Positions 36,735 to 56,500 are shown, counted from the first letter of the stretch. The stretch is 64,000 bases of DNA from an uncultured bacterium (GCA_964434115.1 CAYSSX010000003.1:12554-76553), one strand, 5' to 3'. Notes: generated by a model from the sequence alone, not told the origin. Made by a program: numbers and translations.

Positions 36735-36807
36735 GAGCCCGTAGCTCAGGTGGTAGAGCACATCCCTTTTAAGGATGGTGTCGATGGTTCGAATCCATCC
36801 GGGCTCA
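36735..36807 (+). tRNA. tRNA-Lys (anticodon UUU)
   Basis: A manual cloverleaf fits: acceptor GAGCCCG/CGGGCTC, D-arm GCTC-AGGTGGTA-GAGC, anticodon stem CATCC/GGATG with loop CTTTTAA (anticodon TTT), T-arm GATGG-TTCGAAT-CCATC and discriminator A. Confidence 0.85.
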
Positions 36808-36938
36808 CAAAAGTAAAACCCAACCCAGTGAGGGTTGGGTTTTTTTTTGCCTGAAAAGTGGTGGATTCGAACAGGAGTAGCGGCGCCCAAGAAAAAGGAG
36901 CACCGCCGGTGCGACTTCCATGCGACGGTACGGGGGGC
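36789..36938 (+). repeat. Direct repeat copy 1 (about 150 bp) comprising the last 19 nt of tRNA-Lys, the terminator and about 90 bp downstream
   Basis: It is nearly identical to 36995..37144, with 2-3 mismatches at an offset of 206 bp. Confidence 0.85.
36817..36849 (+). terminator. Rho-independent terminator after tRNA-Lys
   Basis: AACCCAACCC-agtga-GGGTTGGGTT is followed by TTTTTTTTT. The element is duplicated at 37023..37055 inside repeat copy 2. Confidence 0.7.
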
Positions 36939-36994
36939 CGACCGGAGGACGAAAGTTCGAGCGAAGCCGAGAACTGTTTTGAGTCCAAAGGCGC

Positions 36995-37144
36995 TCGAAT
37001 CCATCCGGGCTCACAAAAGTAAAACCCAACCCAGTGAGGGTTGGGTTTTTTTTTGCCTGAAAAGTGGTGGATTCGAACAGGAGTAGCGGCGCCCAAGAAA
37101 AAGGAGCACCGCCGGTGCGACTTCCATGCGGCGGTAAGGGGGGA
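36995..37144 (+). repeat. Direct repeat copy 2 (duplicated tRNA-Lys 3' end and terminator, att-like)
   Basis: tcgaatccatccgggctcacaaaagtaaaacccaacccagtgagggttgggttttttttt...cttccatgcggcggtaagggggg repeats copy 1. Confidence 0.85.
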
Positions 37145-37358
37145 ACCAGGAGGAAGGTTTCAGTGCCCTCGGCCTAGACGCTTCCGGGAATCGTCTTCCT
37201 CTGGAATCCCAGGAATCAATGATAAAGATAAGCGTTAATTCTTAAAGCTAATAAAAGATATAAACAGCTATATATTGATAGTTAAAAAATCGGTTCCCCC
37301 GTTGTTTTCCTGCCTGGAACTCTGTATCCTTTGATCAAAGAGAAGTTTCTTTCCGGGT

Positions 37359-37387
37359 TTGACAAAGCGATTTTAATAAATTATCTT
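37359..37387 (+). promoter_or_regulatory. Candidate sigma-70 promoter in the AT-rich leader upstream of giant ORF 2
   Basis: TTGACA at 37359..37364, a 17 nt spacer and TATCTT at 37382..37387. The region 37200..37440 is markedly AT-rich compared with its flanks. Confidence 0.3.
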
Positions 37388-37460
37388 TACCATATTTAAA
37401 AGTTTTAATATCACTTTAACTAATCGCGTTCCGAGACAAGGGAGGCGACATTCTACTGGA

Positions 37461-40400
37461 ATGTCGCAAACTGACTGTATGGCTATTCTAGGCGCACGAA
37501 AGTGCGCGGCGGTAACATTGTTCTTTTTCGGCTTTCAGACAGTCGCTAGCTCTGCGCCTGCTGAGACGCTTTTACCTGCCGCCTCTCAAATTCAAATCCA
37601 AGAAAAAATCCCCAACTTTACTCCTCAGGAGATTGCCGGATACCTCCGGGAAATCCCTTCCGAACTTGGCAGTTTGCGTGAAAGCTTCATTCCTGGAAAT
37701 GCTGACGCTGAAAACGGGACGGCTGAGAAACTTCCGATGCCGGTTGTTTTTCATGTTCAGGACGCACATGCAAATCTTGAGGCGCAGGCGAGAATAAAAG
37801 AAATCCTGGAATGGGTTCGGAAAATGTCGAAAGACCATGGCGTTCAAGGGCCTGTTGTCGTGGCGCTGGAGGGAAGCGCCGGGGAACTTCATCCAGAGTA
37901 CCTTGATTTATTTCCGGAATATCCGGAGGCGAATGAAGCTTTTGTCCGGGATCTCAAAGACAAAGGCGAGATCACGGGAAGCGGTCTTTTCTTGTGGGAG
38001 CAGTATAAAGAAAAAAAATCGCACCCGGAAAACGACTCGGAAAATACCGGAAACATTGTGTTTTGGGGCGCTGAAAATCCGGAGCTTTACCGGCGTAATT
38101 TGAATCAGTTTCGAAGCCTTTTGATGAAACGCAAGGAGATTGATGCGTTTCTCCAGCCTTATCAAGCCCAGCTTGCCATAGCTCAATCGCGTATTCTTAA
38201 CCCGCAGCTTCGGGATTTTTTGAAAGACAGTGATAACCCCGAGACTCTTGCCCTGGCAGTTCTGAAGCACGCCAAGCCAACACTGGGTATTGATCTTTCC
38301 GAGCGGATCGAGCAGATCCGTTTCCCTAATCTTGCGCGTTTTGCCTACCTCCGTGAGCTTGAGCCGCTCCTCGACTCAGAACTGTCCCGCATGGATTGGC
38401 AGTCGCTGAAAAAGGGGTTTGAAAAGGATGGGATTCCCGAGGAGATGATCGCGAGGTTTGAACAGCTTTTTTCTCCTTCGGATGAAACGGGTGTCTCCTT
38501 CCGGAAAACAGTTGAAGAGATTTTACAGCGTTCCAATTTTTCCGCATCCCGCTTCCGTGATTACCCTCATTTGGCACAATGGGTTTCCTACAAATTACTC
38601 AGCCAGGAAATAGAGTCTTCGGATTTTGTCGCCGAGCTGGAACGGCTCAAGCAGGCGGTGATGACGAAATTGGCCGTGCGCAAGCAGGAAAAAGATTTTC
38701 TGAGTGTGCACAGTGACTTTTCGCTTTTTCAAAAGGTGCTTCATCTCGAAGTGACGCGCAGTGAGTATGCGGAAGCGTTGAAAACTGGAGGCCGTCTTCA
38801 GGCCGGTGAATTCAGCAAGCGCTTGGGCGAACTTCTTGAGCGGGATCGTGAGTTTGAGGAGCTCGGCAAAAATGCACGCAATAACGAGGCGGCTCTTCAA
38901 GAGGTCTTTAAGAAGGCTCTTGGATTCTACGAAGGTGCAGGAAGCCGCGATCTTGAAATTTTGGAGAATGCGCTTAGCTTTTATGACAAGCAAGCCAGGG
39001 CTCAGGTCAGTTTGCAGGAAGGCGCGCTGTCAAAGCCCGGAGTTCTGGTGCTTGTGACAGGAGGTTTTCATTCCGAGGGTGTGACACGTTACCTTAAGGA
39101 TCAAGGGATTGCTCACCTCGTGGTCGTTCCGAGGATTTCAAAAATCGAAACAGAAAATCTTTATTTCAAAGTCATGCGCCGTGAGAATTCCGACATGTCC
39201 GCTTATTTTGACAAAAACCCCCTGAACAAACAGGAGTCTCTTTTCCTTCGCGGACTCGTTGAAAAAGCGGCCCCGGAACTCACTCAAAAATACGGCGTTT
39301 CGAGCGCGGAAATCCCGCAGTTATTGGAGCAAGTCATTCACCGGCATCCGGTGCTTTCTGAAAAACTGGAAACCGCTGTGTTTCCCGGTGAAGGCAAACC
39401 CTTTGTCCGGATTAGTGTCACAGATCCCGCGAAGAAAGCCGTTCGAACCTCGGCTCAAAGTGTTGGGGAAGTGGACCTTCTTACTTCGGCAGGAAAGGGC
39501 CAGGCCTCTTATGCTTATTTGGCAGAGCAGGAATTCGACCCGAGCCTTGTTACAACGGTGACAGTGACGCCGAGCTTAAGCGGTCATTCCGCCGTTGAAA
39601 AAGCGCCGCTCAAAGGCGGTCTGTTGATGCAAAACCTGGGAAGCCTTGAAGTGACCGCGGGGCCGATTGATGCGGCTAATTTAAAAATTCTTAGATCCGC
39701 CGCCGATCAAATGCGTAATTTCAGCGGGATCATGAGCGCGACCCAGGCGGGGCCGAATTCTCTTATTCTGCCCCAGGCTGGAGTGCGGTCGGAGCTTCGA
39801 ACGATTCCGCAGGGATCCGAGAAGAAAGCGGTGGCAGAAATATCGCTCGATAAGATGACGGCAAATCAGGAGGAAATTAACCGGATCGTTGAAAACCATG
39901 ACCTGATTTATGTGAAGGCGGACATCCAGGATACTTTGACCTATGCGGAGTATATGAAAAAGTTTGAACCGTATATCACGGCGATTGGGAGTGCGCTAAA
40001 AACCCTTCGGCAAAAGGAAAAGCTGGGCGGGCGTGACAATTCGCATAAAGTCTTTATCATGAAAACCTGGTCGGAAGTGGGAAGCACTCAAAAGTTTTTT
40101 GATGACATCAAATGGTTCCGGGAACCGACACCGGAAGAAGGCGACAACGATTACTTTTTTGACGTTGTTTTTCAACCCGATTTTTCCTACCGGAGCGAGA
40201 GCGGAAAGGATGTCGAGGACCAAATCCTTTTTGGGGTTCGGAACCTTGGCGTTCCGAGCGGGGATCTCGAAACAGCCCGGCAGGAGAGGACGCTTAATCT
40301 TTTGCGGAAAAATTTTGATAACCCGGATTTTATGGGTGCTGCCAGCGCGGAACAAACGAAGAATGATTTGTTTCTTTACCTGGCGGCGAAGCTCGCGCAC

Positions 40401-43400
40401 TTTAATGACTTAGCCAAGGTGTCAGAGCGTTATGGTGCGGACCTTAGCGTGGTGGCTTATGGCGCGGGGCTTGATAAACGAATCCGCAAACTTTTCACCA
40501 ACCCTTCTTTAGGTTTCGGCGGACGTCTCGCCCAGTTTTTGGAGTGGGTCAGGGAAGAGAGGCTGGAAGAAGTTCTGGCAGCTCTTGAAGCCCGTCCGGA
40601 TTTCTTTACGGAGCGTGAAAAACAGGATACCAAGCAGAAGAAACTGGAAATTATTGAAAGACGCCTTTCGGACAGTGTGTCGATGCTCCGTGAAATTGCT
40701 GAGAACCCGGACAGCGACATCACGGTGAAAGATATTCTGGATAAATTGCCGCCTATCCTGCATTTCCTTTTCGAGCTGGAAACGGTTCTCGATATCAACA
40801 AACGGAATCTGCAGGATTTTTCTGACAAGATTTCAGCGTATGTCGGTGACCTCAAGGGAAAGAAAGCGGCGCTTATTGGCGTGGGGTACCGGGAAGGGGA
40901 CACCCGGGTTACAAAATCTCCGGCCAAGCGGATTATCCGGCAGCTTGTGGCCGCGGGAGTGACCGAGTTTTACGTCTCGGATCCGCTCGCGCGGCAATCG
41001 CTTAAAGAATGGATCGAGGCCATCAGAAAAAACCCGCATGATTCGATGGGGAAAATTCTCAAAGACCGCCGTGTTCGCTTTTATGGCGTGGATGATGGAA
41101 CCCCCGATCTTGATCTTTACACAGCCTCTGCGAATTCCGACTTCGTGGTGATTCCCACAGATGCCAACTCCGATTTGAAGAATTTGGACCTCCCAAGACT
41201 TAAACAGAGTCTGGGGGATAAATTCCTTTTTGACGGAATTAACTTTTTTGGTCTCCGGGCGAACGGAGAAACAATTTATTCTTTAGAGGCCCTTCGGGGC
41301 GCGGGTATCCGCTATGTCAGCGTGGGCCGTCCGCCCTTGAATTTTTCCAGCGATTACGCACTTGTAGACAGCCGCGTTATTGGTGACGATTATGAACGCG
41401 GCGATGCTCAGCTCGCAGCAAAAGCCGTTGAAGAGTATCAGGCCTATCTCTTATCTCTGGAAACAGACGATGAGCGGAGAAAGAAACTGGAAGAGATTTT
41501 CAGAACACCGCAATTAGACCAGCGTGAAGCGAACGCTATTCCTGTCACTCAAAAGAAGGTTGCCGTGATTGGCGGCGGTTACGTGGGATTGACTACGGGG
41601 GCCAACCTGGCCGATCTCGGAAATGATGTGACCGTTCTCGATATTCCGCAGAGGAAGCGCGCGATGGACGCGTTGACCAGTGAAGCCACGGAAGTTCCTA
41701 TTCATGAGCCCGGTCTGCGCGACCTCATTATTAAAGGTAAGGAAGCCGGCAGGATACGGTTTCAAACCCTTCCCGCGGAGTATGAAAAAGGTGTGCGTGA
41801 AGCGAGCATTGTTTACCTTGCCGTGGGAACCCCTCAGCAGGACAACGGCGCTCAGGACCCCGCTTATATCAATGGTGCTATGCGTGATATCGCGGCCATT
41901 ATCAAACGCCAAGCCTCGGAAACGAGCAGAGAGGCAGCCTTTAAAACCATTGTGATCAAATCGACCGTGACTCCCCGGGTATTCGAAGACGCGGTAAAAA
42001 TTTTGGCGCAGGAGTTCGGCCTCAAGCCAGGGATTGATTACGGCTTTGTCAGTAATCCGGAGTTTTTGAGAGAAGGGCAAGCGATCAAGGACATTACCAC
42101 GGACCTTGACCGGACCGTTCTGGGGTTTTACTCGGGAATGCCGCAGGAAGCCCGCAGGCGAGTCGAAAAAGATCTTTTGGAACTCTGGTATCCGCTCATG
42201 CTGCGCACCCCTCACTCTGTTCTGCTGACCGATACGGCAACCTCTACTTTAATCAAATACGCGGCCAATGCGTTTCTCGCGGTGTCCATCACCACGGCGA
42301 ATGTGATGGCCCAGGATGCCGCGCTTGAAATTGAAGGTTCCAACTTCAAGGAAATCGCTCCGAGACTGCGCAGAGACCAGCGGGTTGGAGCGAATGCCTT
42401 CCTGAGCGAGGGATGCGGGTACGGCGGATCCTGTTTTCCTAAGGATGTCCGTGCGGTGAACTATCTTTCCGATGAACAAGCCGGCCGTTCGCTTTTGATG
42501 ATTGTTCTTGCCGATCAATTGAACCAATATTTCAAAACCGCTGAGGTTAAGCGGCTGATTGAACAGCTTCGCGGGACCAAGGCGATTGGGACGAAGGCGA
42601 TTCTTCAGGGCAAAGTCATCGCTCTTCTTGGAATGGCTTTCAAAGCTGAAACCGACGATATGAGAGAAGCGCCAAGCGCGCACGTTCTTTATGAGCTTTT
42701 GAAATTGGATGCCCAGCAAGTCAGGATCGATGACCCGATTTTCAGAACACCGGATGCCCCCCGGAAAGAAGTGATTATCAATAATTATCTGGGAGAGCTT
42801 TACAAGCATTTCAAACACGATGTGGATTTTGAGAGAGCCTTTGACGTCTATCTTAGATCCGGGGCTTTGGAAGATCAGACGGTTCAGCGTCAACTGTTCG
42901 CCAGGCTCCGCTTCAACCCGGATGTCCAAAAGCAATTGAGAGAAAGAATCAGTGTTGATTACGATGTGGATCTTGATGAAGCCGCTTTCCGGAAAAACTA
43001 TGGCATCTATTTTGATCCAAGTAATCCCAAAGATCCATGGGATGATCAAGCCGCCCATCTTGATGTCCGCCCGTTGATTTATGGATTTCAAGGTTTGTTG
43101 AAGACCAACCGCATCGACAGCTCCTCCCTTAAGGAGTTTTACTTCCGTGAGGTTTTCTTTAACCTCAAATACCAGGTCACGAACAGGGTGGTTTTTGTGA
43201 ATCAGGCCGAGGAAGCTCTTTCTTTTGAAGCTTCTGCCGGCAGCGGAAAACGTCCCGCGGATGCCGCACTTTTGATTACGGATTGGAGCGAGTACCGGAA
43301 TTTGGACTATTCAAGTTTTTCAGGACAGCTTTTGATTGATACCCGCAATACCCTTTATGCACGAGCCCCGCAGCTGACATCAAGCCTGGGAATCAACTTA

Positions 43401-44372
43401 ATCGGTCCCGGCCGCCGCACGCCGGCGCTGGGATCCATCCGTTCTGAACTGCGCTTGGCGGAAACAGCCTCGGTTTTTGAAACCCTCGCTGCCTCGGATG
43501 CTGCTAATCCGGTGAGCACGGTCCAGTTCCGGGAAAGGGTTTCGGAATTGCCTCGCCCCGGATCTTCGAGCGTGGCGGAGTTTCTTGAAATTCACCCGGA
43601 CTTCAAACCCAGGGATCAGGTGGTGGATGCTGTAGCCGCATCGTTTTTGCCGGAAGATGTACTGCATACCGATGACCCGAGTTCTATCGAGTATGTTCAT
43701 CTGCGTCTCTCGGAACCGTCCAAGGTTTCCGAGGAAGAACCGCTTGTTCTAAAAGAAGCCCGTGCCGCTTTGGGAAAATACGGCTGGCTTTTGGATCAGG
43801 CAAAAACCCCGGGACAGATTATTCTTCCGCTGGAGCAGGATCAGTCCGGTGATGAGGATCAGTTGAATGACAAGCTGTTCCGGGTTGCGGTCGTTTTGGC
43901 TGCCGCGGACCCGGGAAATCATTTTGCTTTTCTTGTCGATGGAACTCCTCAGCAGGCCCGGGCACAGGCATCCCGTATTGCAGGCCGGCAAAGCGAACTT
44001 AAAATTCCGGCAGCCCGAATTCTCGAACAGTTCAAATTTGTGCCTACGGATGGAAGTTCAGCGGGGTACATCCGGGCGGTTAAACAGCTTTATTCGAAGA
44101 ATAAAGAGGTGGATTCGGCGGTCGTCGGGAAGCGGCTGGATTGGCTGAGCGATCTCGAGTATATCCCGCGTATGCATAGAATTTTCAACGAACGTCTTGA
44201 TGACAAGACCGCTATTCTTGTCACGGCGGCCCTTTTGCGGCAATTGAGCGATCAATACGATGTGGTCAGGATGGACGATCTTCTCAAAAAATTTGATATT
44301 AATCTTGATGAACTGGTTGAGAACGTGGCGCGTATGATCCAGGTCATCAACCATCTTGCGACCCAAGCTTAA
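37461..44372 (+). CDS. Giant multidomain protein 2 (2303 aa). It has an N-terminal hydrophobic anchor, the shared two-His N-module, an extra UDP-binding (UDPGDH-C-like) domain and a complete UDP-glucose/GDP-mannose dehydrogenase
   Basis: Uninterrupted 6912-nt ORF. N-module motifs are QDAH at 37758..37769 and GGFH at 39060..39071. The dehydrogenase motifs are VAVIGGGYVGLTTG, NPEFLREGQA, GCGYGGSCFPKD (Cys codon 42432..42434), IALLGMAFKAETDDMREAP and ITDWSEYRN. Confidence 0.8.
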   Translation: MSQTDCMAILGARKCAAVTLFFFGFQTVASSAPAETLLPAASQIQIQEKIPNFTPQEIAGYLREIPSELGSLRESFIPGNADAENGTAEKLPMPVVFHVQDAHANLEAQARIKEILEWVRKMSKDHGVQGPVVVALEGSAGELHPEYLDLFPEYPEANEAFVRDLKDKGEITGSGLFLWEQYKEKKSHPENDSENTGNIVFWGAENPELYRRNLNQFRSLLMKRKEIDAFLQPYQAQLAIAQSRILNPQLRDFLKDSDNPETLALAVLKHAKPTLGIDLSERIEQIRFPNLARFAYLRELEPLLDSELSRMDWQSLKKGFEKDGIPEEMIARFEQLFSPSDETGVSFRKTVEEILQRSNFSASRFRDYPHLAQWVSYKLLSQEIESSDFVAELERLKQAVMTKLAVRKQEKDFLSVHSDFSLFQKVLHLEVTRSEYAEALKTGGRLQAGEFSKRLGELLERDREFEELGKNARNNEAALQEVFKKALGFYEGAGSRDLEILENALSFYDKQARAQVSLQEGALSKPGVLVLVTGGFHSEGVTRYLKDQGIAHLVVVPRISKIETENLYFKVMRRENSDMSAYFDKNPLNKQESLFLRGLVEKAAPELTQKYGVSSAEIPQLLEQVIHRHPVLSEKLETAVFPGEGKPFVRISVTDPAKKAVRTSAQSVGEVDLLTSAGKGQASYAYLAEQEFDPSLVTTVTVTPSLSGHSAVEKAPLKGGLLMQNLGSLEVTAGPIDAANLKILRSAADQMRNFSGIMSATQAGPNSLILPQAGVRSELRTIPQGSEKKAVAEISLDKMTANQEEINRIVENHDLIYVKADIQDTLTYAEYMKKFEPYITAIGSALKTLRQKEKLGGRDNSHKVFIMKTWSEVGSTQKFFDDIKWFREPTPEEGDNDYFFDVVFQPDFSYRSESGKDVEDQILFGVRNLGVPSGDLETARQERTLNLLRKNFDNPDFMGAASAEQTKNDLFLYLAAKLAHFNDLAKVSERYGADLSVVAYGAGLDKRIRKLFTNPSLGFGGRLAQFLEWVREERLEEVLAALEARPDFFTEREKQDTKQKKLEIIERRLSDSVSMLREIAENPDSDITVKDILDKLPPILHFLFELETVLDINKRNLQDFSDKISAYVGDLKGKKAALIGVGYREGDTRVTKSPAKRIIRQLVAAGVTEFYVSDPLARQSLKEWIEAIRKNPHDSMGKILKDRRVRFYGVDDGTPDLDLYTASANSDFVVIPTDANSDLKNLDLPRLKQSLGDKFLFDGINFFGLRANGETIYSLEALRGAGIRYVSVGRPPLNFSSDYALVDSRVIGDDYERGDAQLAAKAVEEYQAYLLSLETDDERRKKLEEIFRTPQLDQREANAIPVTQKKVAVIGGGYVGLTTGANLADLGNDVTVLDIPQRKRAMDALTSEATEVPIHEPGLRDLIIKGKEAGRIRFQTLPAEYEKGVREASIVYLAVGTPQQDNGAQDPAYINGAMRDIAAIIKRQASETSREAAFKTIVIKSTVTPRVFEDAVKILAQEFGLKPGIDYGFVSNPEFLREGQAIKDITTDLDRTVLGFYSGMPQEARRRVEKDLLELWYPLMLRTPHSVLLTDTATSTLIKYAANAFLAVSITTANVMAQDAALEIEGSNFKEIAPRLRRDQRVGANAFLSEGCGYGGSCFPKDVRAVNYLSDEQAGRSLLMIVLADQLNQYFKTAEVKRLIEQLRGTKAIGTKAILQGKVIALLGMAFKAETDDMREAPSAHVLYELLKLDAQQVRIDDPIFRTPDAPRKEVIINNYLGELYKHFKHDVDFERAFDVYLRSGALEDQTVQRQLFARLRFNPDVQKQLRERISVDYDVDLDEAAFRKNYGIYFDPSNPKDPWDDQAAHLDVRPLIYGFQGLLKTNRIDSSSLKEFYFREVFFNLKYQVTNRVVFVNQAEEALSFEASAGSGKRPADAALLITDWSEYRNLDYSSFSGQLLIDTRNTLYARAPQLTSSLGINLIGPGRRTPALGSIRSELRLAETASVFETLAASDAANPVSTVQFRERVSELPRPGSSSVAEFLEIHPDFKPRDQVVDAVAASFLPEDVLHTDDPSSIEYVHLRLSEPSKVSEEEPLVLKEARAALGKYGWLLDQAKTPGQIILPLEQDQSGDEDQLNDKLFRVAVVLAAADPGNHFAFLVDGTPQQARAQASRIAGRQSELKIPAARILEQFKFVPTDGSSAGYIRAVKQLYSKNKEVDSAVVGKRLDWLSDLEYIPRMHRIFNERLDDKTAILVTAALLRQLSDQYDVVRMDDLLKKFDINLDELVENVARMIQVINHLATQA
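37758..39071 (+). other. Shared N-terminal module of giant 2 (between the QDAH and GGFH motifs)
   Basis: VVFHVQDAHANLEAQ ... VVVALEGSAGELHPEYLDLFPEYPEA ... VLVLVTGGFHSEGVTRYL. GGFH falls at residue 534-537, the same position as in giant 3. Confidence 0.6.
40855..41180 (+). other. Additional UDP-glucose dehydrogenase C-terminal-like (UDP-binding) domain in giant 2
   Basis: KGKKAALIGVGYREGDTRVTKSPAKRIIRQLVAAGVTEFYVSDP...DFVVIPTD follows the pattern VAVLGLAFKxxTDDxRESPA..II..L...GA.V..YDP...AD.VVI.T. Confidence 0.45.
41551..43370 (+). other. UDP-glucose/GDP-mannose 6-dehydrogenase domain of giant 2 (the UDP-binding subdomain has a long insertion)
   Basis: The NAD-binding GGGYVG, the central NPEFLREG, the catalytic GGSCFPKD, the C-terminal FKAETDDMREAP and the final ADAALLITDWSEYRNLDYSSFSGQLLIDTRN are all present. 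Confidence 0.75.
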
Positions 44373-44527: not shown

Positions 44528-47500
44528 ATGGATTTACCTAAAATAAAAACCGGGTGGGCCCGGCTTAGTGCTTGGCCTTTGCTCATCGTCTTTCTCTGTT
44601 CCGAGACGATTGGTCCGGGGTCTGTCCATTTAGCGTATGCCGGCGAACCCGCGGGTTTTTCTAGTGTCATCTCCGGTAAAGACGGGGATGTTTTAAAGGC
44701 TCTCTTGAAGCTGATGCCGGAGAATAAGGCTGTTGTTCAGAGCCTCGAAAATGGAAAGGGAAGTCCGGAAGACCCCCGGGTGATTCATCTTCAAGATGCC
44801 CATGCTAACCCCGAAGCTCAGCGCCATATTCAAGAAGTCCTGAGTTTTCTGGCGGAGCACCAAGCACGCAAAGGGCTTGATCTTTTTGTCGCCGTGGAAG
44901 GCGCCCGAGGAGATTTACACCCGGAGTATTTTGACTTCTTTCCGGATGTCCCGGAGGCCGGAGATGCGGTCGTTCGAGACCTTCTTGAAAAAGGTGAAAT
45001 TTCCGGCGTGGAACTTTTTGCCTGGTCCCAGTATCAGACCCTCAAAAAGAAACCCGCATCCGGCCAGCTGAACCCTGTGAAGATCCGAGGAGTCGAAACA
45101 ACACCGCTTTACCGCGAAAACCTGGAAACTTACCGGGCTTTGCTCAGCCGCCGGCCTTGGATTTCTGAAACCCTTGAAAAAGGTAAGGCGGCGCTGCAGA
45201 GCGAGATGACGCAGACGCTGAATCCGGAACTGACCCGTTTTTACAAAGAGCGTGAGAAACGCCGGCATGGGCAATTTGGAATCCGGAGAAAAGACGCGGG
45301 CAACGGTGATCTGAGCGTTTATGCGGATACGCTTAAGGTGCAGAGCGCGCAAACGCTTCAGGTTAATCTTGAGGATCCGGTTGAGCAGCTGCGCTTTCCG
45401 AATTTTGCGAGGCTTCTTGAACTGAAGAAAACGAAACTCAGTTTTCATGACGAAGCGACTGTTCAAGGCTGGAAGCAAGTCCTAGAGCTCCTTTCCAAAT
45501 CGCCTCAAAATGCAAGCAATCTGACGGCTCTTGCGGAGCTGGCAAAGAACCATGCTATTTTGACGGCCGAGGACCTGGCGGCGTTTCCTTCTGCCGAAGC
45601 CGTGGAAGAAATTTCTCCGCGCCGGATTTTTGAAGACCTCGCACAGCAGGGCATTCTAGCGGCCGCAGGCGAAGAGGGGGCCCTGCCCTTTAAGTCGGCA
45701 CTGAAAGCAATCGTTCTCCAGTCAGAACTTGATGTCCAGGGCTTGTTCGAAGAAATGGACCGTCTTGAAAATGGCATTCTAAATAGTCTGGCTGTGAGTC
45801 CGGCTGAAAAGGAATGGCTTGGCCGGATACAGAGTTATGAGAATCTCCAAAAGCTGATGTATCTGGAAATGACAAGGTCTGAATTTGAAAAGATCGATTC
45901 CCGGCGTCTTGACCTTGAAACCCTGCTGGGAAGCGTTCTTGCTCCGGACGCCCTGAAGGAATTAAAGAAACTCTCGGAGCAGGCATTTTTCTTTTACCAG
46001 CAAGCCCGTGAACGCGATGAAGCGCTTGTGTCCAATGCCCTTGAATTTGTGCATAAAGAAATGGAGGGGCCCGGACGGGAAGTCCTTTCCATGAAGAGGG
46101 AAGACGACTCCAGGCCCATTCTTGTTATTGTCAGCGGCGGATTTCATGCTCAAGGAATACAGGATGTCCTGCGGAAGAAAAAATTGTCCTTTGCGTCCGT
46201 GCTGCCGACTATCGGTGAACTTGACCGGGGAGAACGTTACGCCCGTGTTATGGGAGGCGAAAACGCCGACCTTCAAATTTACTTTAAGAATGCCAACCCT
46301 TTTCTGACGAAGCAGGAAGCTCTCTTTTTTAAAGAGGCCGTTGAGGTGGCCCTCCCTGTTTGGATCAAAGAAAAAGGAACTTCTCCCGATTCTCTCAACG
46401 AGGTGAAAGGTTCTTTTAAGAGCCATCCGGTGCTGTCGCAGATCTTAGAGGTCGAACTCGCGGAGTCTGCTGTTTCGCCGGCCCTTGTTTTTTCCGCGCG
46501 GCCTAATCTTGGGGCTTTGCTGCCAAGAAATTCTTCCATCAGCGCTGTCTTGTCTTCTTCGGATATTGCTTTCAGCCGCGAAGTGGAGGGGAAACTTCCC
46601 AGGAAGGAAACGTCTTCCGAATTCCGGTGGAAACCTTCAGGGGTTTCATCCGCGCCCCGGCCGCAGGAAATCCCGGCTGGACCGCGTGCCGAACTGCGTT
46701 CAACGGGAACATCGTTAAGCCCGGAAGAACAAAGGTTTGCCGAGCAGAATATTCAGGCCATGTACAACGCGGTTCAGAAGTCGGAAGGTCCCGACATTGT
46801 GATCATTGTTTCTGCGCAAGAAAGCGAACGGCGTTTTTGGAAAACAAGGCTTGAAGGCCTGCGCGGGCAGGTCATCGGAAAAGATACAACGGTGTTTTCA
46901 GTTCTGGAAAGTTACGGAGCCGGTTCTCCTCCGGGAAATGGGCTGGGCAGTCTGCTGGCCTATCAAAGCGCCCGGGAAGAAAGCAAAGAACAAGCCGGTG
47001 TCAGCTGGAAAACATTGATGGAAAAAATCAAACGCGAAAAGGGCAGGGAAGCGACGATTGCGATTTATCACACGGCAGGTTTTGGAAGCCGTGTTTGGCC
47101 GATCACCGGTTCCGAATACGGTTCTAAAAGCCGCATCACGATGCCTCGCTATTTGGATAAAGCAGGAAGCAAGGTGCCGATGACGCTTCTTGAGTCCACC
47201 ATTTTTCAAAGTTCGATTTTTGCCAAGAACCGCCCAGGACGAATCCTGGTGTTTTGGGGAGACCAGGTGTTTGTGCCGACGGTGCCGCTCGAGGAGCTTC
47301 AAAGTCCGAGTGATTCTCCTGTCGAGATTTTGGCGTTAGTGGGACAGTTTCCCTACGAAGACATTATCAATAAATATGGGTTGATCGCACTTGAATCGCA
47401 GGGGCCGGACGGATGGACGGCTGCGCGGCTCATGCAAAAACCAAAAACGGTGCAGGAAGCCCAGGAATTTATAGCTGCGCACAGCCAGGTTTCGGGAATG

Positions 47501-50500
47501 GGAAAAAGCCTGGGATCTTTCACTGTGGATCGCCGCTTCTGGGACAGCATGATGCGTTCTTACCGCCAGGAATTGAATGAGGAAAATCCCCTTGAGCAGT
47601 CAAAGAACCGGGCGGATACGGACGGTGATTGGTGGATCCCTCTCACGAGCCTGGAGTTTGTTCTGAAGAATGCCTCGACGGATGTTTCGCAGTTTAAGAA
47701 TGCAAAGGCTCTGAAAGAATATCTTGTGAAAGAGGGGCTTGACCAGCCCGAGTTTACGGACCGGGTCATCCGCCTTTATCTGAGCTCACGGAAAAACTCT
47801 TCTCAGCCTTTTATGAAGGTCATCAATGCCGGAGCCAAATCTCTTTGGTGGGATTTTGGAAATGTCGGAGTCGAGGAAGGAACCACAGAAGGAATCTTCA
47901 GGCGAAACATCCTTGTTCTTCTTCAGGATACAGCGGAAGGCCGTTTGGCGCGGCAGTTCTGGGGAGTGCCAGAACTTTTCACGGGAACATTGCCCGGAAC
48001 GCAGGTTCAGGTTCAGAATTCCATCATCACAGCTTCTGAAATTTTGCCCGGATCGACCGGCGCTATTCAAAATTCCGTCATTTCAGGGGTCCGGGGAGCT
48101 TTCAACTTTGAAGTCTCCGACAGTTTCCTTTACGGGATTACGAATGAAAGCGCTTCCCCGCAATCACCACTTAGCGTCAAGTCCGAACATGGGATTGGCT
48201 ATCAGTTAAAGCTTTCCGCGCCGCTTGCTATTTCCTCGGGACACATTCTGGCAGGCGTTCCAGTTCTTGGAGTAGACGTTGTTTTGAGAACAACTGAAGC
48301 GTCAGATGCAAAACAACTGTGGCTCCGGGCTATGTATGAAAATCTATTAGCTTTTGGATCCGCGGCTTATCTTATCCGTCTGGCTGAAGCTAACCGCAGC
48401 GCCCAAATCGCAGGCGTCTCTGTTTCGAACCTTGAATATCGCGGCTTCTTTGAGCATCAGGGGATGCAGCATGCCGTGATCGAAGGGCGTGACGCTTCAG
48501 ATCAACCGGTTATCGCAGTCCTGCACGTATCTTCTGTTGATCAGATAACAGACGCAGAACTTCATGAGGCCATTCTTTCGCCGGGCATCGAAGGCGCAAT
48601 CTTTTCCGGGAAACTCTATGACAGTTCCAGAGAAATTCTTCTCCTTACTTACGCGGCACGATCCGAATTGCGCGGTCTTGAGATGGATTCTTTGGCGCCT
48701 GAAATCCAGACCTTATTAGCGGCTACCGCCGATGAAGCGGCCTTGAAACAGGAGTTTCTGAGGCTTGTGTATGAAAAGCTTTCGCCGGAAAAAAGCGCGC
48801 AGGCTGCCGCTGTTTTTAAGGCCGTCCGCGCAGACAAACTCCCCTATGAGTACCCGCAGTTTTTTGAGGGGGTGATAAGTGCCCGGACCCAGGCATCCGG
48901 CCAAACATCTTTCAGAGCCTATTTGGAAACGAATCTTTCTGCTAACCCTGCCGAAATCAGCGCTTTTGCGGCGGATATTCTCCGGGCCTTTTCAAAAACC
49001 GCAGATTTTGAAAGGGCTACGACGGCTTTTTTCCGGTTTGATCAGACTTCGACCATTAGGTTTGTGGACCAGCTCATTGAAGAGAAAACGCTTACAGGCG
49101 ACAAATCCGTTACGGTAAAAAGCTTGGGAACTTCCAGCGGAGAAGAGCCTTATACGCTGGCCATGATTGTTTATTATGGATTGAAAAAATATTACGAGGC
49201 TCACCAGCGGGAAATATCGTCAAAAGAAGGGATTGGGACCTTCCAGGCTTGGGCAGAGAGCTGGAATGTTTCAATTGAAGCCTATGATTATGACCTGGCG
49301 AATTTAGTCCTCGTTCAAAACGGTTTGTTTGATTTTCTTTACGATGACCCTATGGGCGGATTTGGTTACAACGATGAAGACAATTATCTCAATGAAGCGT
49401 GGCTGTATTCAAAGGACAGAAATACCGGGGCTCTTGGGCCTGCCGAAACATGGCGGTATTCTCCAGAAACGGAAGCTGGAGCCTCTTTCCCGTTTCGCTC
49501 AACGCTTAGCAAACGGTTGAAATCGGGAGAAAAGATCGGCTTTAAATTTTCTGCCGTCGATTTGCTGAAAAAATGGATGAAGCCTGTTTATGTTGATTTG
49601 CGGGGACCCGCTGACGCTGAAGTTCTGAGTCTTACCCAAGCGAATATTATTGTTGTGAGTTTTCTGCGGGGCGCGGCATATCTCGATTCGAAAGATGATT
49701 ATCTTGTTCAGGCTATAGAAAAAAGCCGGGATGCAAAACACAGCAGTCTTGCCCTTGCCGGATCTGCGATCGTGAAGCCCGCTCAGCGTTCGGAGCTCAG
49801 AATAAGCACAGAGACGGAGAGCCTTGACAGTACACTTTTGAACGCCGTTGGAAAATTGGATATCGAAACATCCGAAGGAGTTAAAACGCTAAAACTGCTT
49901 GTCAGCCGGATCTTGAAATCGGCATTCACCCGGACACTGTCGGCTGAGCAGCGGACAAAAATAGCAGATCTGTCAGGTTTAACCGAGGACAGCGAACAGT
50001 TGGAAGTCCTTCAGGACATTCTTGACGATCCCGAAGTTCTGCAGGTTTTCAGAGATGATCTTGCTGCTGATGATTCGGGCGATGTTCGTTTTGACGCGGC
50101 CGCCCAAACCTTGAGCTATACACCCGGATATGCATTGGCCGTACAGGCTGATATTGACGAAGCGCTGCGCACCTTTGAAACGGGCAGTTATGTCGATGTT
50201 CAGGGGGCTATGATAAAACTTCTCCGGCAGGTGAGCCTGGGATTTGCGGAGGAGGTCCGGAAGAGTCTGAAACAGAGTTTGGTTCGTGAGTTTGAACAGT
50301 GGCGGATTTTGATCAAAGTCTTGGAAACCGAGATTGGTGCCAGATCTGAACTTCGTTCATCAGAAAAAACCTATTCGGAAGCTCTCCAATTTACATCCCG
50401 TCCTGTGGTGACGGTTTCCGGTGATTCCGCAAAAGTTGAAATTACTTTCCGGACAGATGCCGCCACGCTTGAAAAATCAGAAATGTTTTTTCATTGGGGA

Positions 50501-53500
50501 GACTATACGCAAGGCCCGCTGGATTGGACGGATCACGAAATTCTAAATTGGGACATCGAAGATCTCGGCGGCGGTATTTATAAAGCATCAAAGGTGATTC
50601 AGCCCGGCCGTATCGGTGAGTTCGGAGTCACAGCCTACGCGCAGAACCGCGTGACGGGAGAGCGGGTTTGGCAGGGAAAAAACCGAGGTGATGATGCTGT
50701 GATGGGGATTGACCTTCTTCCGAAAACCGTCCTTGAAGACCTCCGGCGTAATCTTAAAAAACAGGAAGCCATTCAGGAGATCCGGCAGAGCCTTATTGAC
50801 ACGAATCCGTATGACAGCTTCATCACTGTGATCCACCGTCTCGTGGTTGATGAAGAAATGCGGGGCATGGGAAAAATTGTTTACGACGCAGTCAAAGATG
50901 TCCCGCGCTTCCGAACGGTTCTTTCTCAGATTCACAGCCGTCTGAAAGAGGACAGTAAAGTCTGGAATCCGTTTTTCAAGGAAAGGGCGCTTCCTGCTTT
51001 GCATGCATTAGAAACGCTCGGCATTGGAGAGATTGTTTTTGTAGCTCCTGAAGGTCCTCATGCGATTGCCGGCGGTTTGGCCAAGGTCATTGAGGGCCTT
51101 GCCAAGGCTTTGTCAGAAAGCGGTGTCTCAGTCACGGTCATCACGCCTCTCTATGAAGACAATCAAGGTAAGAAGCATGAATCCGCAGAAGCTTTGATCG
51201 AAAAAGGTTTCATGACAGAAAGCGGGGAAAGAGTTCCCATTAAGGCCGACCCCGTCGCTGAGATCGGAATGACCTTTGGCCCCATTTATGATTCGGGAAC
51301 GCACATGACCGGTTTGAGCGATGACAAAATCCGGACCTTTCAAAGAACAGTTCAAAGCCGGGTCTATGAAGCCAAAGCAGAAGGCGTCCGGTACCTTTTC
51401 CTCAGACACCCGCGCCTTGCTGACAAGCTTTACGCAAAAGTCCCGTCTTCCGAAGAGTTAAGGCGCGCTGTCTTTCTGTCCCGGGCCGCGCTTGAAGTGG
51501 TTCAGAACAGGGCGCTTGGCGTTGACCCGCAGCTCATCATTTCCAATGACTGGGTCACCGGGTTAATCCCGACGTTCCTTCAACGTGATCCGCGTTACTC
51601 CCAAGACCCCCTTCTCAAGGATGTCGGCACGGTTCATATGATTCACAATTACGGGCGCGACTATCAGGGGCGTGTTTTTACGAATCAATATGGGTTGGAT
51701 CTCTGGCCGCTTCTTGGACTCAAGCACGACTTCTACAAAGATGTTGCAGACCCCAATGATGACCGGTTCCTCAACATCACTTCAAGCGCCATGGAGCACG
51801 TCAACCGTTCCATTCTGACGGTGAGCCGTCCGTATGCCGAGCAGATGCTCACCCCTGAAGCAGGGGAAGGTCTCGACACTATTCTCAATCCGCTGAAAGA
51901 AATTCTGTTTGGAATCAGTAATGGAATTGATGAAGCGGCGGCCCGGAAAACATTCTGGAAAAAGGGTGAAGAGGCCCGTCAGGCCCTCGAACTTCCAGGG
52001 CTTATGGAAGACTATTCCGATGAAGGCTTTTTGAAAAATCTTTGGGACTATAAGAATTCGGCGCTTGTTAAAACTCAGAAAGACTTCGGTTTTACCGAAG
52101 ACCCAGATGCGATCTTTTTGTCGATGATCGGACGCGTTGCCGAGCAGAAAGGCATTCAGCTTTTGACGGATACGGAAAATGGAGTGACGGTTCTGGAAAG
52201 CCTTCTCCAGATGAATCCGAAAGTTCAGATTTTTCTGGGCGGGCCTGTTGCAGAAGGGGATGGGACGGCGGAGCGGCTGCGGGATTTGACCCGTGAACTT
52301 GAGCAGAAATATCCGGGCAGAATCCGGGGGGAATACACCTTCATTCCGGGAGCCACAACCCTTCAGGTCATGCTGGCAAGCCGATTCTTTTTAATGCCTT
52401 CCCGCTATGAGCCAGGGGGCATTACGCAGCTGGAGTCGTTGGCGTCGGGAACGCCTGTGGTGGCAAGAAATGTGGGGGGGATTGCCGCAACCTTGATTAA
52501 TTATTTTGATCATCCCGATAATGGCAACGGCTTTTTGTTTACAGATTTTACCGGCGCAGCCCTTCGAGGAACGCTCGCAGCGGCTTTTGATGCAGCGGCT
52601 GGCGACCCCGGCCTTCTTAAGACCTTGTCCAACCGTGCTGCCAATGCTCAAAACGACTGGCATGACCGGATTCCTCAATATCTTTCTCTGCTTCAACTCG
52701 GGGCCGGCGTGATCCGTCCTTCGGAAACGGCATTTCAGACAGATTATGCTTATCTCTCTGACCGGACAGGCATTCTTAACGACCTTCGCCCCCGCAACCG
52801 CGCAGAATTGAGATCGGATAAAGGGAACCCCTATATACTGGAAGAGAATGTCACCCGTGGATTTGCATTTCTTGATGAAATGCATGGGGGCCGCGTGAGC
52901 ACGGCGATTTCAAACGCGGTAAAACGCGCAGCGCCAGGAACTAAACCCAGAGTGCTCCTCTTAGAGGTCGGACGCGGAGTTGTGCCTGCCGAATTGATAA
53001 ACCAGAGAGACGAAAAGGGTGAAAAAAAATGGCCCGATGTTGAGTTCTTTTCGTCCGGTGCGGAAGACCTGCTTTTTTCTGCAGAAGAACTGGAGAAATT
53101 CATGGGCAATATCAGCCCTGAGGAGGCTGCGGTCATCGCGGATACTATCAGAGGCCGTTTCGCCGCTGCGGATCTTGACTATGATCTTGGCGCTTTTGAG
53201 AATTCCACATTTGATGTCATTGTCATGACGCAGGCTGTGATGGAGTACATGAGAAATATCCCCGGAGTGATTGACCGTCTTTCCAGAAAATTAAATATCG
53301 GAGGAGAGTTCATAACCGATCTGGACATCATGAGTATTAAGGATCCCGAGACGCAGGAAAGAGTGGATACGAAAGCTTTCTTTGAGTCGTTGAATCCAGG
53401 TTATGAGATCTATGGAATTACCCTGAAAGGCACACCGCTGCCGTACGACTTTTTTGCAGGACTTCGTTTCACGCGCCTGTCAGAAGACATTCCCAAAATT

Positions 53501-56500
53501 CCGCTGGATGCGACACAGAGTTCAAAAACCTATACAGTGCAGCGCTCTGAGCTGCGCGCGGAACAAGCCAGCGCTCCCCAAAACGTGCGTTTGAACGGCG
53601 TTTCACCTGAAATGCTGAAAGTAGAAGCCGGCGAGCTGGTTTTTTGGCGTCCGTCCCAGCGTCAAATGAACACGTCTCTGAAGAGGCCTTATGATGATGA
53701 AAAGGTCGTGGTCCAGAAAATACACAATGAGCTTGAAACTTTGGATACCCTTTGGATGCAGATTATGGGCGAGCTTCAAGAGCGGAGCTATTCCCCTGAT
53801 GCGCTGGATATTGTGGAGCTAATGGTTCGACGTGCGATGGAGGTGATACGGACCCAGGAGATCAAAGCGGAAGTGGCGCTCCGAACGGTGAAAGAGGAAA
53901 TGCTGGCGGCCGCTAAAGAAGAATCCGGTGATGATCTGGATTTAACGACGGCAGCAGGAATCGTAGATAAGAGGCTTCTCCCCGCTTTGGAAAACCGTGA
54001 AGAGCTTGTGTATGTTGAAAGCGGTCTCGATGAAGAGGCGAGGAAAAAACTCTTCATTGATCGAGAGAGAGACCAAGTACTCGCGAAAGTTTTTGAAATC
54101 ATTCTTCGACTGCCGTATGGGCTGCACATTTCCCCCGAGGATTACGGAGAAGATGAAAAAGACAGGGTCAAAAAGCTGATCCATACGGAACGCCAAATAG
54201 CGGACGGACGGCGCGCCATGCTCACCAATGACCTACTGCCGGAGATCCTGAAAGTTGTTGAACAGGGGAAGAGGGCCCAGTTTGCAATTAATCAGGTCAT
54301 CAAAAAGAAGGTCGAGCCGGGCTTGGAGCGCTTAAAAAAGATGGTGGACGACAGCCGTAAAACAGGCGGAGATACCCTTGTCGGTTCAAGACTCATCAAA
54401 GTTTTTGAAGAACAGAGATCTCTCCTGGAAGGGATTCGCGACGAATTTGACACGTATGATTTTATTTATGATTCGTCAGACCTGCCTGCGGAAAAGGAAA
54501 AGAAGCGGCGCGGCGAGCTTGAACGGTTTGAAGCCGTTTACAGGGACACCCTGGTTTTTTTCCCAAATCCCTCTGAGGATCTAAAAGCGTTTCTGGAAGA
54601 ACTCAGAACCCTGGTTACGTATGAAATCCGGGAGCGCGGCCGCACGCTGGACTATGGTATCGCGAAATTTTTCAGTCAAAAGGGATCGGAGCGGTATAAA
54701 GATATTCCCACTGAGCAGCTTGATTTCCTGATGCGGTTTTACAACGTCAGCCAGTATGGCATCGTGAAGCGGAAAGGCGACAAGAACCTTGTGGTTTTCG
54801 CGGAGAAGATCCGGCATGAAGCCGATTTTGCCGAGCTGATGATGAGGAACAAGGGGCGCGGAAGAGTGGTCTCAATTGCGACGCTCAAACGGTTCGCTCC
54901 GGATGACGCGCCCGGCCGGGTACCGCACTGGTTTATTTTTTCAAAAGACCAGGGCATTGTTCCGATTGAAGCACTCGACTTTGAAGATCGTAAAATGGAT
55001 TTCAAGGACCTCAAAGACGGAGACTTCGTTCTGGTGGACGGCAAAAAAGGAATCGCTGTCGTGAACCCGAACTCGGAAACTCAGCGCGATATGATCGAAC
55101 GCGGCAAGGTTTACAAATACCTGGATGAGTATTTCCTTCCGCGCGTGTCTCTGCCGGCTCTTGTCAATGGACGACCGTTCTACTTTTGGGCGGATGAATC
55201 ACGTTTGGATTACCTGAAGCGCGACGGCGATCAGCCGAGATTCCAGAAATTCGGAGCCCGGGGGATCGGACTGCTCCGGCTTGAGCAGTTGATGGGAGAA
55301 ATGGACCGTGCGGGCATTGAGTTCGACGAAATGCGCCTCAGCCTTGCAATCGAAGAAATGCTTCTGCCGTTTTCCGATCCTGAAGCGCCGTTGACGATCC
55401 GACTTTATGATGTTCAAGGAGATAAACGCCCGAAGTTTTTTGTGGAAGGAAAAAGCGAGGAACAAATCGAGGGTATTCTCAAGACGCATTCCAACATTCG
55501 CTTTTACCTGGACGAACGGGAGGAATTCCGCAATCAGCGTGAATTCGGAAAAATGCAGATCAAGGCGATTTACCGGGCTTATCTCCGCGCGCAGAAGAAC
55601 AACTTACAGATTCTGCTCCCAAATCTGCTGAAAGTGGAAGAGGTAGAAGCGTTGAAGAAGCTTTTTGATGAAGCGCGCCAGGAGCTTATCCGTGAACTTG
55701 AAGAAGAAGCTCTGATTCAGGTAGAAGCGGCCGTGGTGCGCCGGCACGGGTGGATCACAGATATTAATGCTTTGGAAACCGAAGCCCTTGAGAAGGGGCT
55801 CGACTGGTTCAGGAATCAGCTTCTAAGTAAGCCCGAAATGAAGCCGCACGAGGAGCAGTTCGGGCAAGAGTCCGACGCTGATTTTGCCAAGGTGGCTGGC
55901 CCTGATTTTGGAAAGAAAGTCACTCTGAGTTTGAGCAAAATCCGGTTTGGATACATGTTCGAAGAGGTTTCGGCTGTTGAGCAGCGCAGCGACATTATGA
56001 AGGCTGTCCTTGCGCAGCATCAGGTTGCGGAGGCCAAGCCTTTTTTTGGAATCGGTACGAATGACCTTCAGAAGTCAGTACTTGAGTCCCGCGAAGAAAC
56101 CAATGATGAGATGAACAAGCTGCACCCCGGACTTGTGAAGGCTATAGCGGATCTTGAGGGGACTGCGCGTGAGCTAGGACTTCATCTGACCGTTGAAGGC
56201 CAGTGGGGCGGATCCGCCCGCATGCTGTTTGCCGCCATGGCGCTTGAAATCTATCACGGGCGTAAGATGCAGCTCGTTGCGCCCACCAATAAAATCCCTG
56301 AACTTCTTGAAATGATCCGGATGACTGAAGCCGCGGATCTGGAACACGTTTTTGACTTGGGATCCAGCTATAAGCCGGCATCCATGAAAACATTGATTGA
56401 CCGGATGGAAGCCGGGGATCTTCCTGAGCTGGATGAGATGAACCTTGTCGCGACCATGCTGCAAGACCGTATTGAGGCGAAGATTGTGGCCAGTTCTGAT

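Follow-up and report, generated by a model that had tools for sequence, protein, structure and literature searches.

A small gene-less cassette, partly repeated in tandem, at the 3' end of tRNA-Lys(UUU) in an uncultured Omnitrophota bacterium

Integrative elements that use tyrosine integrases and target tRNA genes leave partial-tRNA repeats, attL and attR, at their borders (reviewed in PMC9897764, which cites Williams, 2002, and Reiter, 1989). Cis-mobilizable elements (CIMEs) are decayed integrative elements that have kept attL and attR and lost the integration genes, and their tandem accretion at tRNA-Lys has been described (PMC5704250). Tandem tycheposons with partial-tRNA remnants occur in Prochlorococcus islands (bioRxiv 10.1101/2020.12.28.424599). 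The subject of this report is the DNA directly 3' of a tRNA-Lys(UUU) gene in a stretch of 64,000 nucleotides from an uncultured bacterium (GCA_964434115.1, CAYSSX010000003.1:12554-76553), the whole of which is called the window. At this locus a 206-bp gene-less cassette, E, follows the tRNA and is partly repeated in tandem. Ribosome recycling factor (RRF) relatives place the window in the Omnitrophota; a metagenome scan with RRF returned no member of the genus, its top match being 67% identical. Partial tRNA repeats are routinely taken as the scars of lost islands; here the intervening DNA is a small, conserved, structured unit that is gained, lost and multiplied.

A direct-repeat search of the window returned a single family, with two copies of 149 nt (R1 and R2) lying 206 bp apart from start to start. 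The original prediction had described two 150-bp copies, more than 97% identical and about 56 bp apart. The near-identity holds, with 147 of 149 positions matching (99%), and the spacer is indeed short; the exact length is 149 nt, the 150th base being C against A, and the spacer measures 57 nt. The only mismatches (36925 A against 37131 G, and 36931 C against 37137 A) fall within the final 13 nt, leaving an exactly identical tract of 136 nt. A near-identical repeat of 149 nt cannot have arisen by chance. Its left edge is T55 in the T-loop of tRNA-Lys(UUU), with the last 19 nt of the tRNA inside the repeat, and identity between the copies extends 130 nt past the tRNA end. The tRNA end, the terminator and the palindrome that the original prediction had assigned to each copy were all located in both. 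The locus contains the following features.

36735-36807/8, plus strand: tRNA-Lys(UUU) (ARAGORN; Rfam RF00005, 70.5 bits)
36789..36937, plus strand: R1, spanning the end of the tRNA and its trailer, the terminator, the inverted arm and ~78 nt from the start of the cassette body (repeat search, alignment)
36808..37013, plus strand: E1, one complete 206-bp cassette unit (indel relative to contig L001; orthology to L163 3148-3361 and L167 645-935)
36815-36843 (feature entry to 36852), both strands: bidirectional intrinsic terminator of unit 1, a 12-bp stem with flanking A-run and T-run
36860..36872, plus strand: inverted arm GGTGGATTCGAAC, with a second copy at 37066-37078 (sequence comparison with the tRNA)
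36900..36912, no strand: hairpin GCACC-GCC-GGTGC, the palindrome GCACCGCCGGTGC, with a second copy at 37106-37118 (hairpin search)
36938..36994, plus strand: U1, the 57-nt spacer between R1 and R2, which is the conserved 3' third of E1 and is unique in the window
36995..37013, plus strand: downstream tRNA-Lys 3'-end copy TCGAATCCATCCGGGCTCA in an attR-like position (a matching 19/20-mer lies 3' of the L163 cassette)
36995..37143, plus strand: R2, with its mismatches to R1 at 37131 and 37137 (repeat search, alignment)
37021-37049 (feature entry to 37058), both strands: bidirectional terminator of unit 2, identical to that of unit 1 (terminator scoring)
37144..37221, plus strand: U2, the tail of unit 2 (homology to L003 restarts at 37222)

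E1 is made up of a trailer with terminator, an inverted arm, a structured body and a downstream copy of the tRNA 3' end. The terminator arms, AAAACCCAACCC and GGGTTGGGTTTT, form 12 pairs and were scored on both strands; the same trailer and terminator module stands 3' of the tRNA in the related contigs L163 and L003. The arm GGTGGATTCGAAC is the reverse complement of the tRNA T-loop and the 3' half of the T-stem, with one mismatch to 36787-36799, and can pair either with the downstream 3'-end copy, forming a closing helix, or with the tRNA itself. It is the "TTCGAATCC-like" minus-strand string which the original prediction had judged not to fold as a tRNA, a judgement borne out by ARAGORN and Rfam, both negative. 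The L163 hairpin at the place matching the palindrome is GCGC-GAAA-GCGC, a compensatory change relative to the window. Whereas the first 149 nt of the two units are 99% identical, no significant similarity links their tails, U1 and U2 (z = 1.5), and U2 showed no demonstrable relation to U1 or to E of other species and no fold signal. At the end of U2, TGGAATCCCAGGAATCA (37203-37219) is, read by eye, a possible decayed 3'-end copy. The frr stop codon lies 5 nt before tRNA-Lys, in the gene order rpsB-tsf-pyrH-frr. No further copy of the tRNA-Lys 3' end or of the cassette was found in the 64-kb window. ARAGORN reported only tRNA-Lys and tRNA-Glu on its two strands, with no tRNA pseudogene or (permuted) tmRNA, and nothing besides the tRNA passed the Rfam cut of E = 0.01.

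Relatives were found by RRF protein search and contig look-ups, and the percentages given for them are RRF identities to the window. In L163 (83%), the tRNA is followed by the window-type trailer and terminator, the arm GGATGGATTCGA, a body that aligns with window 36849-36994, and then TCGAATCCATCCGGGCTCAC, a copy of the tRNA end whose identity is limited to 20 nt. L167 (77%) has a longer cassette with the same blocks, and its outer arm, GAGCTCGGATGG, corresponds to the acceptor 5' strand plus the T-stem 5' strand. The orthologous arms track the local tRNA, over 12 nt in L163, where the complement is exact, and over 10 nt in L167. In shuffle tests the E1 body scored z = 17 against L163 and z = 6.2 against L167; U1 compared with the 3' part of L163 E gave z = 5.9, none of 1000 shuffles being as good. 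On these alignments, the ~0.2-kb non-coding cassette E is orthologous in the window and two other Omnitrophota species. The original prediction had supposed that whatever integrated between the copies was lost; the spacer is instead the 3' third of this orthologous cassette, and is not the debris of a lost island. Comparisons of U1 with U2, the L003 insert and the cassettes of contigs L007 and L005 were not significant and were set aside, as was a candidate small protein of 54 aa (36858-37022), which shows some apparent synonymous change relative to L163 and has its frame broken in L167 by indels of +8 and +13 nt. These non-triplet indels and the lack of conservation of the open reading frame (ORF) indicate that cassette E is non-coding.

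When related tRNA-Lys loci are compared, as the original prediction had proposed, the site is found with one repeat copy (L001), with a single cassette (L163, L167) or empty (L168, L170, L174). The cassette of L163 and L167 is bordered on one side by the tRNA and on the other by 16-20 nt repeated from its 3' end, after which comes the ancestral tRNA trailer. The L163 cassette, of 214 bp, has its own terminator, and the hairpin trailer ACTTTTTC..GAAAAAGT follows the downstream 20-nt 3'-end copy. In L174 (73%) this trailer stands directly 3' of the tRNA; the cassette is also absent from L168/169 (75%) and L170/171 (74%). The relatives with an empty site are those nearer the base. The empty site of L174, set against the filled site of L163 with its 20-nt repeat, is, as aligned, the classical insertion pattern.

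A sister assembly, Logan contig L001 (SRR16481187), matches the window at 100% identity across 5.7 kb, both flanks included, except for exactly 206 bp that it lacks; the missing stretch is E1, 36808-37013. Either copy number is polymorphic or the L001 assembly collapsed the repeat, and a real single-copy haplotype is thought likelier because L001 crosses the repeat unbroken in a k = 31 graph. Contig L002 (SRR16481186) stops at the tRNA end, as do L165 and L172, contigs of two related species. In L003, from a sister species (95%), tRNA-Lys is followed at 4652-4860 by a 45-nt insert, CATCCAGGCTCA and the window-type trailer with terminator. A 100-N gap comes next, with the same 25-mer (GGCTCACAAAAGTAAATCCCAACCC) on both borders, and is probably a similar tandem repeat that broke the assembly. 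The contig ends at the tRNA and the L003 gap therefore suggest that the locus is heterogeneous or repeat-rich in several samples, and the repeat accounts for the contig breaks and collapses here in several assemblies. Homology between the window and L003 ends at 36807 and restarts at 37222, so that the variable slot is 414 bp, that is, two units.

The arrangement recurs across the phylum. Among tRNA-Lys genes adjoining frr, 20 of 68 are followed on the same strand, 65-430 nt downstream, by a copy of their own last 15-26 nt; the same count gave 1/53 for tRNA-Leu and 1/49 for tRNA-Gly. Cassettes ending in such a copy are short (65-330 nt), and the sequences between tRNA and copy belong to unrelated families. 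The copies match lineage-specific tRNA substitutions (L023, L088, L147). At 21 loci, the 5' part of the cassette is complementary to the 3'-end copy beyond shuffles (Fisher p = 7e-9), 9 of the 21 being individually at p < 0.05. These observations support the view that the tRNA-Lys 3' end is a recombination hotspot, at which relatives carry differing short insertions bracketed by 3'-end copies. Two of the families are located as follows.

L063 4630-4782; L088 1003-1169; L023 4258-4416; L044 4715-4849; L121 2611-2747: family A in tRNA operon spacers
L147 3813-3984 and 4311-4483: family A, two occurrences
L129 3734-3941; L161 3737-4116; also L036 and L089: family B, units of ~80-100 nt

Family A is ~150 nt long and strongly structured (fold z -4 to -5.6), with three hairpins that show compensatory changes and the conserved motifs GGGGTRACAG and GAGCGA, and its distribution on the RRF tree is patchy, in scattered lineages. 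Where it follows tRNA-Lys, its end is a copy of the T-arm and the acceptor 3' strand. In L147 one copy stands behind tRNA-Lys and another behind tRNA-Gly, each with its two ends re-tailored to the tRNA that it follows. The family-A core was also seen in L113, L037, L099 and L015, where it precedes a promoter-like site and an intact tRNA with the leader AGCGAACGAC. A family-A covariance model (R1) run on the window matched only the tRNA itself. The family B unit consists of a spacer, GCCGAG (the 5' half of the T-stem), two hairpins and GTCTCGGGAGGCTCA, and resembles a T-arm with an insert replacing the loop; units stand in tandem, two in L129 and three in L161.

The same tRNA core is used by an integrase-bearing element, which serves as a positive control for integration at this site. 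Scanning viral contigs for TCGAATCCATCCGGGCTCA recovered a provirus, IMGVR_UViG_3300014205_000408 (39,074 bp). One of its ends holds a complete tRNA-Lys(UUU); at a distance of 38.8 kb, the same strand carries a 31-nt copy, GGTGTCGATGGTTCGAATCCATCCGGGCTCA, that ends in the 19-mer. The partial copy has a tyrosine integrase (PF00589, 59.9 bits) 400 bp away, and an element-borne terminator directly follows the tRNA. The tRNA 3' part from the T-loop onwards, which is repeated in the window, is also the core that flanks this 39-kb provirus. The provirus ends are unrelated to E.

L175 1-1476: provirus segment
L177 12540-12614: provirus segment

The other match to the window-type core in viral contigs, L176, lies inside a phage gene and was discarded as chance; the mainstream Omnitrophota core had no match in viral contigs.

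With a rough probability of one half, we read the locus as ~1.7 tandem copies of cassette E at the T-loop/3' end of tRNA-Lys(UUU), that is, as a miniature integrase-less att cassette that has been partly re-duplicated. A unit would comprise a tRNA 3' end that replaces the original from T-loop to discriminator, a bidirectional terminator of its own, an inverted T-loop/T-stem copy and a structured, non-coding body of ~130 nt reaching as far as the crossover point within the following tRNA 3'-end copy. The ancestor shared by the window, L163 and L167 lineages would have acquired the cassette through a Campbell-type crossover at the T-loop, catalyzed in trans by a tRNA-Lys-specific tyrosine integrase. 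The cassette may be a decayed integrative element reduced to its att arms, like a CIME, or a miniature satellite; on entry, its 3' end would complete the tRNA and displace the host's old 3' end downstream. In the window lineage, the unit would then have doubled, through a second integration or an unequal exchange between 3'-end copies, and the 3' third of the distal copy would have been lost or replaced (U2), its first 136 nt being kept or made identical by gene conversion. Finally, homologous recombination between the 149-bp repeats would lead to the gain or loss of exactly one 206-bp unit, which is the difference seen between L001 and the window. The 149-bp identity would accordingly be the product of later unequal exchange or gene conversion and not an att core; the edge of a conversion tract or crossover would be expected to show just such a confinement of both mismatches to the last 13 nt. 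Excision and integration by a cognate integrase supplied in trans may occur, the evidence being indirect: the integrase-bearing provirus with the same core, and the one- and two-copy haplotypes.

The likeness to scars of tyrosine-integrase elements lies in the repeat that runs from the T-loop to the tRNA 3' end, in the element-side copy that completes the tRNA and brings its own terminator, in the empty sites of relatives and in the integrase-bearing provirus on the same core. A T-loop class is reportedly among the sublocation classes of tRNA integration that Williams distinguished in 2002. The att scar suggested by the original prediction is to this extent upheld, in its anatomy, its hotspot relatives and its provirus core. 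It does not account for the identity 130 nt past the tRNA, where a scar would be limited to the att/tRNA segment, nor for a unit of ~0.2 kb with no integrase or other genes, whose body is conserved and structured in three species.

Several observations weigh against the att cassette. Identity of 130 nt in the host trailer is unexpected in a foreign element and calls for an extra local event to make R1 equal to R2. Without significant similarity between the tails U1 and U2, "two full units" is unproven, and a collapse of the repeat in a k = 31 assembly could account for the one copy in L001. Compensatory helices and fold z-scores of -2.8 to -3.4 are unexpected of protein-binding att arms and point to a putative selected RNA or single-stranded DNA structure. 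The original prediction had suggested a search of the contig for an integrase; no integrase, recombinase or transposase was found among the window ORFs scanned with Pfam, namely those of 150 aa or more that were judged real (ORFs nested in longer ones were taken as spurious), all of which are housekeeping or giant genes, and no integrase, Xis or transposase stands beside any cassette seen. Viral contigs, phages and plasmids yielded no circular or attP form of the cassette and no larger parent with E ends; the R body, U1, the family-A motif and the junction of U1 with the 3'-end copy had no match in four viral-contig scans and a phage/plasmid BLAST.

Other described systems are each matched in part. 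CIMEs and tycheposons share with the cassettes gene-less DNA between att copies (E1 is flanked by the tRNA end and its copy), tandem arrays split by partial tRNAs, and heterogeneity within populations. CIMEs are kilobases long and of recognizable descent from integrative and conjugative or integrative and mobilizable elements, whereas the cassettes fall in a narrow size range (65-270 nt), have re-tailored ends (L147) and have no known parent, no descent from a larger integrative element being recognizable in viral contigs, phages or plasmids. Miniature inverted-repeat transposable elements (MITEs) are likewise small, non-coding and patchily distributed, with inverted termini comparable to the 9-12 bp shared by arm and 3'-end copy. 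Unlike a MITE, the cassette has no target-site duplication, its inverted repeats are copies of the host tRNA, and it is not multi-copy in the 64-kb window; it is not classed as one here. Tandem duplication with homogenization would match the head-to-tail 206-bp period, the 147/149 identity, the mismatches at the edge and the gain or loss of one unit, but U1 and U2 are not detectably homologous and a plain duplication alone leaves the structure, and the origin of the first downstream 3'-end copy, unexplained.

Recombinase-free and functional-RNA explanations stand beside the att cassette, the functional RNA being the more novel. A local origin without recombinase, by slippage, template switching and unequal crossing-over at palindromes (the TTCGAA T-loop, the T-arm and the terminator) followed by gene conversion, is somewhat unlikely. 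It would suit the order of direct, inverted and direct copies, the junctions at the TTCGAA palindrome and the terminator hairpin, the nearly perfect long palindrome that tRNA end and arm form around the terminator in L163, the identity that continues past the tRNA, the lack of an integrase among the scanned window ORFs, and the exact 206-bp gain or loss, a homologous event. It leaves unexplained the source of a ~130-nt body unrelated to the flanks, the occurrence at 30% of tRNA-Lys loci against almost no tRNA-Leu or tRNA-Gly loci, and the L147 core that lies behind two tRNAs with re-tailored ends; the clean empty site of L174 against the filled site of L163 is an insertion signature.

That the cassette is primarily a functional structured RNA whose gene was duplicated is unlikely, and would be compatible with an att origin. 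It would be a stem-loop closed by its 5' arm pairing with a copied 3' strand of the tRNA acceptor/T-arm, in other words a tRNA minihelix whose T-loop holds a large insert. The ends of such an RNA would be set by tRNA-processing enzymes, or the RNA would act on tRNA-Lys. The folds lie below shuffles in three species: E1 has z = -3.4 on the minus and -0.6 on the plus strand, L163 -1.9/-2.8 and L167 -3.1/-2.6 on the two strands, while the truncated copy E2 gave no signal. RNAalifold on the three sequences predicts a closing helix of arm and 3'-end copy, inner helices and 9-11 compensatory pairs on either strand, and the L163 hairpin is of GNRA type; with only three orthologues, this covariation lacks statistical weight and is merely suggestive. 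The composition of the L167 arm, the enrichment of complementary arms at the 21 loci, the conservation of the unrelated and strongly structured family A in scattered lineages, and an E that is non-coding, with its ORF broken by the L167 indels, would also fit. However, both strands fold about equally well, so that no strand can be assigned, a strong terminator separates tRNA and cassette, and neither strand in the window has room for a promoter. Rfam 15 has no credible match for the window, L163, L167 or family-A cassettes, and close relatives, perhaps also a conspecific strain, lack the cassette.

It is very improbable that the tandem is an assembly artefact in which a strain variant of a single genomic copy was threaded into a false repeat. 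The one-copy contig with identical flanks, the L003 gap between identical 25-mers and the several contigs broken at the tRNA end would agree with it; yet real reads must contain the junction of U1 with TCGAATCC, the order of U1 and then a tRNA 3'-end copy is conserved in L163 and L167, a 136-nt identical tract is resolvable by large-k assemblers, and the k = 31 Logan contigs are those expected to collapse or break. Least credible of all is the suggestion, raised in the original prediction, that the pair of giant genes downstream (37461-57499) arrived as cargo of a tRNA-Lys island of which the repeat is the attL-side scar. The giant genes of the window are the following.

797-8833: giant ORF, 2678 aa, no Pfam match
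37461-44372: giant 1, 2303 aa, UDP-glucose dehydrogenase domains
44528-57499: giant 2, 4323 aa, starch-synthase-like glycosyltransferase and PEP-utilising domains

An interval without giants between tRNA-Lys and tRNA-Glu does occur, the two tRNAs being 17 nt apart in L084 (3567-3733) and 442 nt apart in L007 (4645-5238), where a cassette lies between them and sua5 is found further downstream. This arrangement shows the ancestral synteny of frr, tRNA-Lys, tRNA-Glu and sua5, into which the giants were placed, and the adjacent tRNAs of distant relatives imply that the giants entered the interval at some time. Against a joint arrival stand the absence of any tRNA-Lys 3' copy near 57.5 kb, the far end of the giants, the position of both repeat copies upstream of them, the lack of an integrase among the scanned ORFs, and their native composition (GC 0.509 against 0.521, with a flat tetranucleotide profile, z within about 1), which rejects a compositional island. 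Moreover, giant-1 orthologues adjoin tRNA-Lys in six relatives (L003, L163, L167, L168, L170, L174), with or without the cassette, so the giants must have entered long before it. The giant genes are bystanders, older than the cassette and compositionally native, and the suggestion that this 20-kb pair is a recently integrated island is removed.

More broadly, it is a tentative proposal that the window's repeat is a two-unit array of one family in an undescribed class of gene-less structured cassettes of 65-270 nt in Omnitrophota tRNA operons, resembling an acceptor/T-arm minihelix with a structured insert in its T-loop, single or in tandem, and gained and lost between close relatives. In such a class, the 5' arm would be the complement of the neighboring tRNA's 3' strand, to which the 3' end would be identical, and at least one core (family A) would have been re-tailored from tRNA-Lys to tRNA-Gly inside a single genome. 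The members may be miniature att-only mobile elements that parasitize tRNA-specific tyrosine integrases, or tRNA-mimic RNAs whose ends are cut by tRNA-processing enzymes. If they depend on integrases, no smaller att-bounded mobile units have been described, and they would mark integrase activity in a phylum that only metagenomes have revealed; if RNAs, they would form a new tRNA-mimic family embedded in tRNA operons.

Some further observations concern individual loci. The tRNA-Leu(UAG) cassettes of L056 (4953-5130) and L113 (3822-4095) terminate with the 3' end not of the resident tRNA but of its other allelic form, the allelic acceptors being GGGCGGA and GCGGACG; this hints at tRNA gene replacement or horizontal movement of the cassette. 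In L005 (4794-5014), an unrelated ~200-bp insertion behind tRNA-Lys has its own terminator, CCCAACCG, and a degenerate copy of the T-arm and 3' end plus 13 nt of trailer, and the L006 site is empty. Just downstream, on the minus strand of L005 (5267-5980), a truncated ORF has a weak match to a recombinase zinc ribbon (E = 0.008, below cut-off). An insertion sequence lies between tRNA-Lys and the family-A cassette of L121 (1410-2600), with a TTTTATC target duplication and an ORF that, reading its translation by eye, is like a DDE transposase. In L015 (4693-5045), the anticodon loop of tRNA-Lys(UUU) is split by a ~270-nt group I intron (RF00028, 92.8 bits, 4725-4993), and the gene was missed by ARAGORN.

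The N-terminal ~600 aa of giants 1 and 2 are ~30% identical to each other. Upstream of giant 1 lies one more conserved feature.

37349..37460, plus strand: promoter-like region and 5' leader of giant 1 (90% identical to L163; conserved in L003)

It contains TTGACA-17-TATCTT at 37359-37387, which like the leader is nearly invariant in L003 and L163. The region lies outside the cassette; the variable slot has its right border here. The Shine-Dalgarno sequence GGGAGG of giant 1 is directly followed by a conserved stem, GCGACATTC...GAATGTCGC, with a variable loop, which could be a hairpin for translational control.

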